NCBI GenBank assembly: GCA_043741355.1
Contig: JAYUAL010000383.1
Coordinates: 1-44,967, forward strand
Reading direction: 5' to 3'
DNA from: Gemmatimonadales bacterium
GTDB taxonomy: Bacteria; Gemmatimonadota; Gemmatimonadetes; Gemmatimonadales; GWC2-71-9
Length of the DNA stretch: 44,967 nt
Shown here piece after piece: positions 22,895-23,976 of this stretch. Positions within the stretch are counted from its first letter, which is position 1; every line of letters starts with the position of its first letter. Both the position numbers and the translations under genes were made by a program. The notes below the pieces were generated by a model, which worked only from the letters and a program-made list of their open reading frames with translations, was not told the DNA's origin and ran no database searches.

Positions 22895-23976
22895 CAGATG
22901 ATCGCCATCGCGTCGCCGTAGCTGTAGAAGCGATAGCGCGCCTGCACCGCGATCCGATAGGCCGCCATGGTCGCCTCGTAACCCGCGAACGCGGCCACCA
23001 GCATGAGGAGTGTAGACCTCGGCAGATGAAAATTTGTGATGAGGCGGTCCACCACCTGGAACTGGTAGCCCGGAGTGATCATCAGCCTGGTCTCGCCGGC
23101 ACCCGGCGCCACGGTCTGGCCTCCCTGAGCCGCCGACTCGAGCGCCCGGACCACCGTGGTGCCCACCGCCCACAATGCGCCGCCGCGAAGCCTCGTGGCC
23201 GCGATCGCATCCGCCACCGCGTGGGGAATCTCGAATCGCTCCGGGTGCATCGGGTGGCGGGTAAAGTCCTCGTCCTCCACCGGCTTGAAGGTGCCCGGGC
23301 CCACCTCGAGATCGAGCCGCGTGACATGCGCGCCGCCTTCCTCGAGGCGCTGCAGCAACTCGGGGGTGAAGTGGAGGCCCGCCGTCGGTGCCGCCACGCT
23401 CCCCTCGCGCTCGGCGAAGACGGTCTGGTAGCGAACGTCGTCGTCGGGCGTCGGGTCGCGAGCGATGTAGGGCGGCAGCGGCAGGCGACCCACGCGGTCC
23501 ATCGTTTCTTCCGCGGTGGCGCCATGAAACCGGACCCGCCGGTAGCCGTCGGGCAGCTCCTCGACGGTCTCGATCTCGATCCCCTCACCCAGGTCGATGC
23601 GCTTGCCCGGCCTGAGCGCGCTGCCCGGCTTGCCCATTGCGACCCAGGTCCGATCGGCGGCGGGGTGGAGCAGCAATACCTCCGCCGGCGCCCCGGACGG
23701 ACGGCGTCCGATCAGGCGGGCATGACGCACCTTGGTGGAGTTGAGGACCAGAAGATCGCCGGGAGGAATGAGCTCGAGGAGGTCGGAGAAGCGACCGGAC
23801 GACGGGACGACGGGACGACGGGAACCTGGCTCCCGTCCTCCCGTCCTCCCGCCGTCCCGTCTCAGGACCAGCAGCCGGCTCTCCCCCCGCGCCGCGGACG
23901 GCGTTTGTGCGATCAGCTCCGGGGGCAGCTCATAGTCGAAATCGGAGGTGCGAAGGGACACTGCCAGATCACCCAT
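22894..23976 (-). CDS. queA: S-adenosylmethionine:tRNA ribosyltransferase-isomerase
   Basis: ATG at 23976 ([24 protein letters not shown]). [49 protein letters not shown]. 1-nt overlap with the tgt start. Confidence 0.9.
23797..23863. repeat. Imperfect palindromic period-8 G3/C3 repeat element, in-frame inside queA
   Basis: GGACGACGGGACGACGGGACGACGGGA - ACCTGGC - TCCCGTCCTCCCGTCCTCCCGCCGTCCCGTC. The arms are near-complementary with one mismatch per 8-nt unit. C3 tracts at 23832, 23840, 23848 and 23856. Confidence 0.75.

Follow-up and report, generated by a model that had tools for sequence, protein, structure and literature searches.

A hairpin-capable element built from 8-nt repeats lies in frame within queA of a Gemmatimonadales bacterium

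Ogata and colleagues are said to have described, in 2000, the Rickettsia palindromic elements (RPEs), palindromic in-frame inserts that are translated within tolerant surface loops. RPEs are about 100-150 bp long and AT-rich, share a family consensus and have no internal tandem units. Cyanobacterial heptamer repeats, named STRR, were reportedly described by Mazel and colleagues in 1990.

Simple sequence repeats (SSRs) of the units GGGAATC and GGGGAYT are known from Xanthomonas and Nostoc (Rehm et al. 2015, PMC4692102). These are tandem arrays of 6-9-nt units with a G3 tract per unit and a ceiling at, or preference for, about four units, and they are often paired in convergent inverted orientation, so that stem-loops can form. 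In Xanthomonas the GGGAATC arrays mostly have four units, 70-75 of them form convergent inverted pairs, and 89-93% are intergenic (PMC4692102). The same paper cites a wider group of long SSRs in large, high-GC bacterial genomes. The element described below resembles the Xanthomonas and Nostoc arrays in its tandem units, their number and the inverted pairing, but its unit has 8 nt. Several unit families occur per genome in place of one dominant heptamer, and the four-unit limit holds also for units without G tracts. Moreover, copies in queA, tgt, rsmB, thiE and a gene for an MFS transporter are in frame in conserved genes at recurrent orthologous sites, whereas the Xanthomonas arrays are mostly intergenic and do not recur at the same genes when two species are compared (PMC4692102).

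Other systems resemble the element in part. Coxiella MITEs (PMC5896051) are also palindromic DNA in frame in conserved genes, translated and tolerated in surface loops. REP/BIME sequences with their RAYT proteins are short GC-rich imperfect palindromes in many copies, often near gene ends. REPs are extragenic, 20-40 bp long, tagged by GTAG or CGTC and RAYT-linked (PMC3733652), whereas the queA copy is intragenic with tandem-repeat arms. The cyanobacterial STRR and the Beggiatoaceae TAACTGA repeats (the latter in PMC4679880) are dispersed, mostly intergenic tandem heptamers of few unit families. Most are direct arrays whose copy number varies and is often larger, and they are not known to lie in frame within genes of housekeeping enzymes. 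Borg tandem repeats evolve fast inside ORFs and are translated as low-complexity, disordered segments. They are direct and come from archaeal extrachromosomal elements (PMC9879509), unlike the paired hairpin arrays of queA with their 8-nt unit and three-unit steps. Finally, in quasipalindrome or template-switch mutagenesis (Ripley model; PMC8794818; PMC8604942) a switching polymerase creates, extends and complements inverted repeats. It can make multi-base compensatory changes in one event and can affect coding sequence (PMC8794818). This model is described for short stems, not for arms of tandem 7-9-nt units, and does not by itself explain the period and the four-unit ceiling.

The window, by which we mean the whole 44,967-nt stretch of contig JAYUAL010000383.1 that was analysed, carries queA at 22894..23976 on the minus strand. 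Its 360-aa translation matches the QueA structure 1wdi with E = 1.6e-85. The product is a 100% match to a 360-aa Queuosine_synth protein, and its best matches come from Gemmatimonadales. The queA ATG overlaps the end of ruvB. Directly downstream, queA adjoins tgt (21728..22894, minus strand), which encodes 388 aa and matches the E. coli Tgt structure 10fb with E = 1.7e-112.

The queA element is 70 nt long, has 75% GC and consists of two inverted four-copy arrays of an 8-nt unit, in frame, 115-185 nt from the gene start. On the mRNA, the G-rich 5′ arm (23830..23861, minus strand) has about four units of GGACGGGA, in the sense direction GACGGGACGGCGGGAGGACGGGAGGACGGGAG, and contains a G3-N5 x4 motif. 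The C-rich 3′ arm (23792..23823, minus strand) has four units of TCCCGTCG. Between them lie the 6 nt that form the hairpin tip in the dot-bracket structure (23824..23829, minus strand). Tandem Repeats Finder (TRF) gave 23792-23823 as (CGACGGGA)x4.0 with period 8 and 95% matches, and 23830-23861 as (CTCCCGTC)x4.0 with period 8 and 87% matches. An inverted-repeat search paired 23793-23826 with 23828-23861, two arms of 34 nt that are 85% complementary. Like Xanthomonas-type SSRs, the queA arrays are thus tandem repeats of a 6-9-nt unit, with about four units each, in a close convergent pair. In the predicted fold one position per 8-nt unit stays unpaired. The queA-sense RNA of the element has a predicted energy of -69.7 kcal/mol, as compared with -46.7 +/- 4.1 for shuffled sequences (z = -5.6), and none of 200 shuffles matched it. 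The letters given for 23797-23863 in an earlier note on this DNA are exactly those of the window, and its claim that the insert is capable of forming a hairpin agrees with this folding check.

Each arm encodes 10 residues. In a loop comparison over 70 loci, QueA residues 39-62 (23791..23862, minus strand) make up the entire loop between the strand RLLVL and the strand/helix GRF-SDLL. Gemmatimonadaceae, Longimicrobiales and other phyla have the canonical 11 aa, whereas the loop in the window has 24 aa, a gain of 13 residues. In the HMMER alignment to the solved structures 1wdi and 1vky, a 12-13-residue gap falls exactly at the insert. In an AlphaFold model the strands at residues 34-38 and 59-62 flank the loop, and the mean pLDDT of residues 41-50 is 58. 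The earlier note had suspected extra in-frame residues at this place, and orthologue loops, structural gap and model all confirm them. The insert is translated as a low-complexity loop, which the model places at the surface, as a floppy segment of lower confidence between two strands. The element thus shows the trait of the Rickettsia elements, being palindromic, in frame, translated and located in a surface loop of a conserved protein.

A sibling of the element lies in tgt, 1.5 kb away and also in frame (22326..22357, minus strand). This array has about four units of the same family, as seen from pattern matches and from TRF (period 8, 3.9 copies). On the plus strand it reads TCCCGTCC TCCCGTCG TCCCGGCC TCCCGTCG, so that the mRNA side is G-rich. 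It encodes 12 residues within a 15-residue extra segment that appears as a gap versus E. coli Tgt. The 16-mer TCCCGTCCTCCCGTCC of queA recurs at 22326-22341 with the last base as the sole mismatch; both copies are on the same strand and both give the peptide TGGRE. When the window was searched with this 16-mer at up to 3 mismatches, 11 matches were found against 2.1 +/- 1.4 expected, a number reached by 0 of 100 shuffles, and nine of the 11 fall in the queA and tgt arrays. The tgt recurrence pointed out in the earlier note therefore stands on the 16-mer, the TRF array and the shared peptide. Sequence reading and folding also revealed a small hairpin, GACGGGAAGA / GTCT / TCTTCCCGTC, at the tgt array (22309..22332, minus strand). 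It is one inverted unit opposite the array, the remnant or seed of a second arm. At the same site the tgt gene of locus L163 has a full hairpin of the window's family with about 3.6 + 4.0 units, exactly 8 aa longer. The second arm has one unit in the window and four in L163. L081 and L164, two other close relatives, lack a tgt insert, and the empty site of L164 contains a short native palindrome, CTGGCG...CGCCAG.

We compared the queA insert with those of orthologous loci. Genome-collection and metagenome scans gave mostly distant QueA loci, and about 16 near-clade queA loci were among the matches listed. The QueA loop measures 9-43 aa among the 120 closest orthologues, and neither its length nor its sequence is conserved in proteins that are 66-100% identical outside it. 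In 75 of the 85 long loops, P/S/L/F/V residues are more frequent in the second half than in the first, the pattern expected when a G-rich arm precedes a C-rich one. We consider it very improbable that the Arg/Gly-rich and Pro/Ser-rich loop is selected for a role of the protein, for instance in tRNA binding or in some interaction. The model places this charged loop on the surface, and in Tgt the peptides encoded by the arms are conserved in three proteins of Gemmatimonadaceae. However, the QueA loop varies in length and sequence where the rest of the protein is conserved, its composition tracks the purine and pyrimidine arms of the DNA, and some relatives lack the insert. There is also no protein-level rationale for palindromy and an 8-nt periodicity. 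If the hypervariable QueA and Tgt loops of Gemmatimonadota are driven by DNA and are not adaptive, this would be relevant to alignments, phylogenies and structure prediction.

The differences between relatives are whole units. In L163 and L164, queA lacks exactly 24 nt (three units) of the G-rich arm compared with the window, L082 and L165. Since close relatives differ by 24 nt, the reading frame is always kept. L163 and L164 have lost one hairpin arm; L081 and L166 have lost the other, and the QueA loop of L006 is canonical. All units of the C-rich arm are TCCCGTCG in the window and all are TCCCGTCC in L082, which is within-arm homogenisation. The same QueA and Tgt loops carry arrays in many Gemmatimonadota genomes, with units that differ between genomes. 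Different unit families even occupy orthologous sites, namely tgt in the window and L163, in L082 and in L166, and the cstA-ybdD junction in L167, L171 and L172. At their ends the arrays run into conserved flanking codons: GTCCGACC units adjoin the native GTCAGACC (RQT codons) in L025 and L089, and in thiE TCCGTCTA units adjoin TTCGTCAA. When 20 kb syntenic with L081 were aligned, intragenic indels of at least 6 nt fell mostly at the array or hairpin sites of queA, tgt and rsmB, with the queA/tgt junction as the exception. Slippage expansion, named as an alternative in the earlier note, fits both the whole-unit differences and the array ends that merge into native codons.

Three other accounts were rejected. 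A single ancient insertion that merely decayed conflicts with the within-arm homogenisation, the unit-block changes and the several unit families at one site. An assembly artefact is contradicted by the same architecture in independent JGI, ENA and NCBI assemblies. Translational bypassing does not agree with copies that are, every one, in frame and stop-free.

With a unit length that is not a multiple of 3 and arrays inside coding sequence, gain or loss of a single 8-nt unit could in principle switch queA or tgt off and on. Such a phase-variation (contingency) locus is extremely unlikely here. The arrays have merely about 4 copies, the observed differences are 24 nt, and every recovered orthologue is in frame, although these were recovered by protein-based searches, which are biased against frameshifted alleles.

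The reading we prefer, and to which we give about an even chance, is that the queA element is a DNA-level product of replication slippage and template switching, tolerated in a permissive loop and translated. The element would arise and be kept up as DNA. It would start from a short palindrome or microhomology native to the sequence that codes for the loop. Slippage would extend this seed by gaining or losing 8-nt units, and intra-strand template switching, an established route to creating and repairing stems (PMC8794818), would copy an arm from its partner and perhaps also from arrays elsewhere. Since 8 cannot be divided by 3, selection on QueA and Tgt would pass only in-frame, stop-free variants, in practice changes of three units (24 nt). 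The purine-rich arm would then give R/G/D/E/T and the pyrimidine-rich arm S/P/V/L. The enzyme would tolerate the loop extension and not need it, and the G-quadruplex (G4) motif would be a by-product of the unit sequence. This generating process is an inference, and the insert is probably neutral for the protein. Slippage alone is insufficient to explain the period of 7-8 and the limit of about four units. The queA copy shows that short-unit hairpin repeats, known mainly from intergenic sites, can live in frame inside conserved enzymes, where the reading frame filters their evolution into three-unit steps. The orthologous sites are a natural series for studying the part of slippage and template switching in making and keeping long stems.

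The queA element belongs to a widespread class of hairpins made of short repeats, whose members mostly lie between genes. In Gemmatimonadota this class has 7-9-nt units in about 4 copies, often as inverted pairs. About 1.5 Mb of loci contained 37 inverted array pairs, most of them intergenic. Copy numbers showed a heavy tail to about 4.5 for periods 7 and 8 and none for periods 5, 6 and 9-11, and units without G3 or C3 tracts had the identical ceiling of about 4 units. The 'small GC-rich repeat family' that the earlier note had proposed can be kept in this wider sense, as a class of 7-9-nt-unit arrays across Gemmatimonadota.

Beyond QueA and Tgt, in-frame members of the class were found in ThiE, RsmB and an MFS transporter of Gemmatimonadota. 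In the window, the rsmB linker has an in-frame extra segment with (CCGGACT)x3.3 (17899..17941, minus strand), detected by TRF and as an indel versus L081. Its frame is open, with GC3 of 0.8 and 0.9 on the flanks, and it is the same class of event as the queA insert. Two extragenic members of the class in the window are hairpins between convergent genes. One, at 13108..13167, has arms (CGGGGAG)x4.4 and (CCCGCTC)x3.4, and the other, at 31327..31389 between convergent glycosyltransferase genes, has arms that contain (GGACAGTGA)x2.7. As with the Xanthomonas SSRs, the extragenic members in Gemmatimonadota lie near gene 3′ ends or between convergent genes.

Some units recur at unrelated loci. GGACGGGA is present at queA, at tgt and at the cstA-ybdD junction of L167 (Gemmatimonadales), and CCGACCTA at L082 tgt, L084 queA and L171 cstA-ybdD. 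Such recurrence is not predicted by a purely local origin, and some copying between sites is therefore possible.

The earlier note had suggested a REP- or MITE-like element. In a mobile reading, a non-autonomous element of the REP, MITE or RPE kind would be spread by a hairpin-recognising enzyme, such as a RAYT or an IS200/IS605-type transposase, and would insert repeatedly at permissive sites, some of them in frame. Identical unit families and the 4+4 architecture at unrelated loci of different genomes would agree with this, orthologous tgt and cstA-ybdD sites with different unit families look repeatedly occupied, and one Xanthomonas heptamer is found at about 186 loci (PMC4692102). We nevertheless find mobility improbable and its claim unsupported. 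No terminal signature or target-site duplication was found at the array ends, as judged by eye, and these ends blend into native codons. MITEs have terminal inverted repeats, target-site duplications and unit-length copies, whereas the copies here differ by whole units, with 24-nt blocks changed inside the element. The element is in frame in queA, where REPs are extragenic. Within the 45-kb window its unit is confined to the two adjacent genes queA and tgt. A search of 5.8 billion proteins with the translated unit gave merely 25 weak matches, all in short hypothetical ORFs, and an incidental, non-systematic look saw no transposase linked to any copy. Compared with RPEs, which form a dispersed family of about 100-150 bp, and with Coxiella MITEs, the 70-nt, 75%-GC queA element consists only of 8-nt units, changes by whole units, merges with native codons and has no consensus beyond the 8-nt unit.

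The stem itself may also be selected, as a feature of the ruvCAB-queA-tgt-yajC-def operon RNA (a processing site, a block to 3′ exonucleases, a partial terminator or a translation pause) or as a DNA or protein-binding site. With overlapping genes there is no intergenic space for a selected hairpin, which would for this reason sit in a tolerant loop; queA itself overlaps ruvB and adjoins tgt. Hairpins of different sequences persist at the tgt site over deep divergence, and 10 of 18 tgt inserts among the matches listed have z < -3. In three Gemmatimonadaceae tgt loci a 20-bp stem is 80-90% identical, while the loop is 48-65% and the flanking tgt 77-84% identical. This stem contains two independent CG-to-UA compensatory changes. 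Stem-over-loop conservation together with compensatory changes suggests that the tgt stem is maintained, and a function of the hairpin is thus possible. Unbiased conversion alone would not slow the evolution of the stem. The window's extragenic members lie between convergent genes, and Xanthomonas arrays lie a mean of 28 nt from the upstream ORF (PMC4692102). However, compensatory pairs can be produced by template switching as well (PMC8794818). In most relatives the queA hairpin has degenerated or kept only one half: among the matches listed, 3 of 20 queA inserts have z < -3 and 17 of 20 z > -3, with L163, L164, L081 and L166 each minus an arm. The hairpin is thus not strictly kept at queA across relatives, L081 and L164 do without a tgt insert, and L006 has the canonical queA loop. 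The 3′ flank of the queA stem, GCUUCUCCGACC, is not the U-tract of an intrinsic terminator, and a comparison of the window with Rfam at gathering thresholds matched no family. On balance a selected nucleic-acid hairpin is a possible explanation that we regard as unlikely.

A bolder combination is also unlikely. Elements of about 4+4 copies of a 7-9-nt unit might spread actively in Gemmatimonadota, and probably in other phyla, by an undescribed copying between loci. They would repeatedly occupy the same permissive sites, among them in-frame sites of essential genes such as queA, tgt, thiE and rsmB, and their stems would be selected as RNA or DNA structural signals in packed operons. The copying might be done by a hairpin-specific enzyme, or by template switching that is guided by microhomology and uses existing arrays as its source. 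Should the stems prove to be under selection, or the units to be copied from one locus to another, bacterial repeat elements would have a new kind of biology.

The G-rich arm also has the sequence of a G4. By chance 0.16 copies of the motif (CCC-N5)x3-CCC would be expected in the window; it has 3, one of them at 23832-23858. The four sense-strand G3 tracts of queA make up a canonical G3-N5 x4 motif, which fits the usual G4 pattern of four G3+ tracts spaced by 1-7 nt. The G-rich arm scores 1.41 in G4Hunter, and the best 25-nt stretch 1.52. In Xanthomonas the four-unit preference is linked to G4, and oligonucleotides formed G4s in vitro (PMC4692102). It is nonetheless highly unlikely that a G4 of these tracts regulates transcription or translation of queA. 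An energy model that allows G4 still has the hairpin as its fold of minimum energy (-69.7 kcal/mol for RNA, -36.8 for DNA), as compared with -8.7 and -5.9 for the G arm alone, so the hairpin is predicted to dominate. Among the matches listed, the sense-strand motif is kept in 5 of 20 queA and 2 of 18 tgt inserts of relatives. Arrays without G3 or C3 tracts, as described above, stop at the same copy number. Of the earlier G4 claim, the motif is real and the role is unsupported, and we would caution against taking G4 motifs in such arrays as functional.

Single-linkage clustering of the units at up to 1 mismatch, with rotations and both strands, chained nearly all of them and was uninformative on families. 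A plain direct array, (GGACGGGA)x9.5, was seen on a 41%-GC contig (P0130/L170).

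The contig (44,967 bp, 69% GC), from a Gemmatimonadales MAG and with Gemmatimonadales proteins as the best QueA hits, carries the gene order ruvC-ruvA-ruvB-queA-tgt-yajC-def on the minus strand. On re-reading, the sequence at 23797-23863 was as the earlier note had described it. Within queA (22894-23976, minus strand, by ORF translation), tandem-repeat calling gave the arrays (CGACGGGA)x4 at 23792-23823 and (CTCCCGTC)x4 at 23830-23861. These arrays are inverted copies, with 34-nt arms of 85% complementarity that leave one position per unit unpaired. Matches to the 8-nt unit and to (C3-N5)x4 were both well over chance expectation. 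The queA-sense RNA had a predicted fold of -69.7 kcal/mol, compared with -46.7 ± 4.1 for shuffles (z = -5.6). Folding the entire contig in sliding windows gave four clean long hairpins, including the queA element.

The coding sequence of QueA residues 39-62 (24 residues) consists wholly of the hairpin. When aligned with the solved QueA structures 1wdi and 1vky, a gap of 12-13 residues falls precisely at the insert. In the AlphaFold model (mean pLDDT 83) the insert is a lower-confidence loop between strands 34-38 and 59-62.

QueA loci were collected from genome and metagenome collections (matches listed), with close orthologues added by exact look-up. The loop ranged from 9 to 43 residues in the 120 closest proteins (66-100% identity). 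Beyond the immediate clade it was 11 residues among the loci listed, which included Gemmatimonadaceae, Longimicrobiales and other phyla. The second half of the loop was richer in P/S/L/F/V than the first in 75 of 85 long loops, as expected if a purine-rich arm is translated first and a pyrimidine-rich one after it. The DNA of the orthologous inserts likewise consists of arrays, mostly of period 8, and their units differ: GGACGGGA in the window, GACGGCCG in L001, GGATCGGC in L003 and CCGACCTT in L084. The L082 locus has the same hairpin as the window, yet the units of its C-rich arm are all TCCCGTCC instead of TCCCGTCG. In L163 and L164 the G-rich arm is short by exactly 24 nt, or three units. 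In L081 and L166 it is present and the C-rich arm is replaced by other sequence.

In tgt, the gene directly downstream, the same 8-nt unit forms an array at 22326-22357 (tandem-repeat call), faced by a single inverted unit at 22309-22332, as read from the sequence. Together they add 15 residues compared to E. coli Tgt. This site is empty in L081 and L164; L163 carries a complete GGACGGGA-family hairpin, longer than that of the window by 8 aa (three units), L082 has a GTCGGTAC / CCGACCTA hairpin, and L166 has a hairpin of period 9. Deeper in the phylum, the corresponding position in Gemmatimonadaceae is occupied by other hairpins or by lone arrays. Recurrent array sites of their own were also found in ThiE, RsmB and one MFS transporter. 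Across 20 kb of synteny with L081, intragenic indels of at least 6 nt were mostly at the array sites in queA, tgt and rsmB; the exceptions were at the queA/tgt junction.

The queA and tgt arrays probably arose by replication slippage, as judged from unit-block differences, homogenisation within arms and the merging of array ends with native codons. In L025 and L089, GTCCGACC units abut native GTCAGACC; in thiE, TCCGTCTA units abut TTCGTCAA; and empty tgt sites contain a short native palindrome. Slippage combined with arm-to-arm template switching, a documented route to stem creation and repair (PMC8794818), would build and repair the stems. Since the unit is 8 nt long, only frame-preserving changes would survive in housekeeping genes, which would explain the 24-nt steps. 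This frame constraint also indicates that the segment is translated, and the loop peptide would be whatever the arms happen to encode. The proposal of an in-frame, tolerated, slippage-type repeat belonging to a family was borne out; calling it REP/MITE-like, with the mobility this implies, was an overreach.

Slippage with template switching does not explain why the same unit families recur at unrelated loci of different genomes. A 4+4 hairpin of GGACGGGA units is present where cstA meets ybdD on a different Gemmatimonadales contig, and CCGACCTA occurs at L082 tgt, L084 queA and L171 cstA-ybdD. This sharing makes some copying of units between sites plausible, which might proceed through template switching guided by microhomology or through some as yet undescribed means of mobility. 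Evidence of such dispersal, or of selection acting on the stems, would raise the importance of the element.

On stem selection, three Gemmatimonadaceae tgt loci were compared. Identity was 80-90% in the 20-bp stem, 48-65% in the loop and 77-84% in flanking tgt, and the stem had two independent CG-to-UA compensatory changes. The higher stem identity and these changes hint that the stem is maintained at these loci. For queA, a significant hairpin was retained in only 3 of 20 inserts among the loci listed. This, together with close relatives that are missing one arm or the entire insert, argues against a required function.

The G-quadruplex motif noted earlier is present (G4Hunter 1.41 for the G-rich arm), but a role for it is not supported. 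With quadruplexes allowed, the predicted fold was still the hairpin (-69.7 kcal/mol as RNA, -36.8 as DNA), the G arm by itself reaching -8.7 and -5.9 kcal/mol, respectively. The motif is not conserved across orthologous inserts, and the four-unit ceiling is independent of G tracts. Among the high-GC loci (1.07 Mb), arrays of period 7 or 8 had a heavy copy-number tail to about 4.5 copies and none past, with similar behaviour for units with or without G3 or C3 tracts. No such tail was found for periods 5, 6 and 9-11.

About 1.5 Mb of the loci listed contained 37 inverted array pairs (period 7, 23; period 8, 12; period 9, 2), mostly intergenic, with a few from lower-GC genomes of other phyla. This architecture is already published for Xanthomonas, where each genome has ∼186 GGGAATC arrays, most of them with four units, 70-75 in convergent inverted pairs and 89-93% intergenic (Rehm et al., PMC4692102). 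The queA element is an octamer-unit, in-frame version of these inverted long-SSR arrays, and differs further in occupying recurrent permissive sites in conserved Gemmatimonadota genes. Our literature search found no description of Gemmatimonadota arrays or in-frame hot spots.

Similar to the Xanthomonas repeat, the heptamer GCGGAAT / CGGATTG flanks queA as inverted pairs of 4-5 copies in many Gemmatimonadaceae loci, and such pairs are present in lower-GC loci too (the loci concerned are L007, L091, L092, L093, L098, L105, L120 and L135). In metagenomic contig L170 (41% GC), the queA-element octamer forms a direct array at 3077-3153, (GGGAGGAC)x9.5, that lacks an inverted partner; the octamer therefore also occurs outside Gemmatimonadota as a plain microsatellite.

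The window itself has two hairpins of the inverted-array class, each flanked by convergent genes. One, at 13108-13167, has (CGGGGAG)x4.4 and (CCCGCTC)x3.4 as its arms and separates the FTR1/cytochrome gene from lgt. It supplies the last codons of the former, looks like a terminator yet has no T-run, and 17 nt of it are absent in L081. The other (31327-31389) has period-9 arms, and the genes converging on it encode glycosyltransferases; in L081 the corresponding place (1965-2612) holds an additional 23S_rRNA_IVP/bAvd-like gene, with (GGATTGA)x8 and (CTCGATC)x17 arrays on its flanks. At 44674-44712, (CGTCCCCCC)x4.3 encodes SSPPSSPSPPSPP in an open plus-strand frame, within an amidohydrolase-like ORF that reaches the contig end. 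The long clean hairpin at 7121-7185 (perfect 14-bp core at 7138-7168, -54.6 kcal/mol in an 80-nt window) is not made of tandem units and has no open frame across it.

Single-arm period-8 arrays occupy one thiE site in L008, L030, L093, L105 and L126, immediately ahead of the conserved LFVNDRLD motif; their units (TCCGACCC, TCCGTCTA, CTATCCGC and GTCCGCCT) are similar to the native flank TTCGTCAA. The rsmB linker of the window (17899-17941) has an additional in-frame segment with (CCGGACT)x3.3. In L093 rsmB (14082-14343), (CGGGGAG)x3.4 and its inverted copy are 217 nt apart, giving a long-range stem that encloses some of the coding sequence. The MFS gene adjoining ybdD has in-frame inverted period-7 arrays in L167 (3827-3915) and L171 (13689-13766), where the site appears to be orthologous and the units differ (CGTGAAC and GGTGACC). 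Gene content also differs amid conserved synteny. Between queA and tgt, both L163 (3050-5099) and L164 (1531-2718) carry an inserted glycosyltransferase gene, along with a fatty-acid hydroxylase gene that was called only in L163; L082 (3829-6827) has PadR and MacB inserted where the window has ∼27104-27132.
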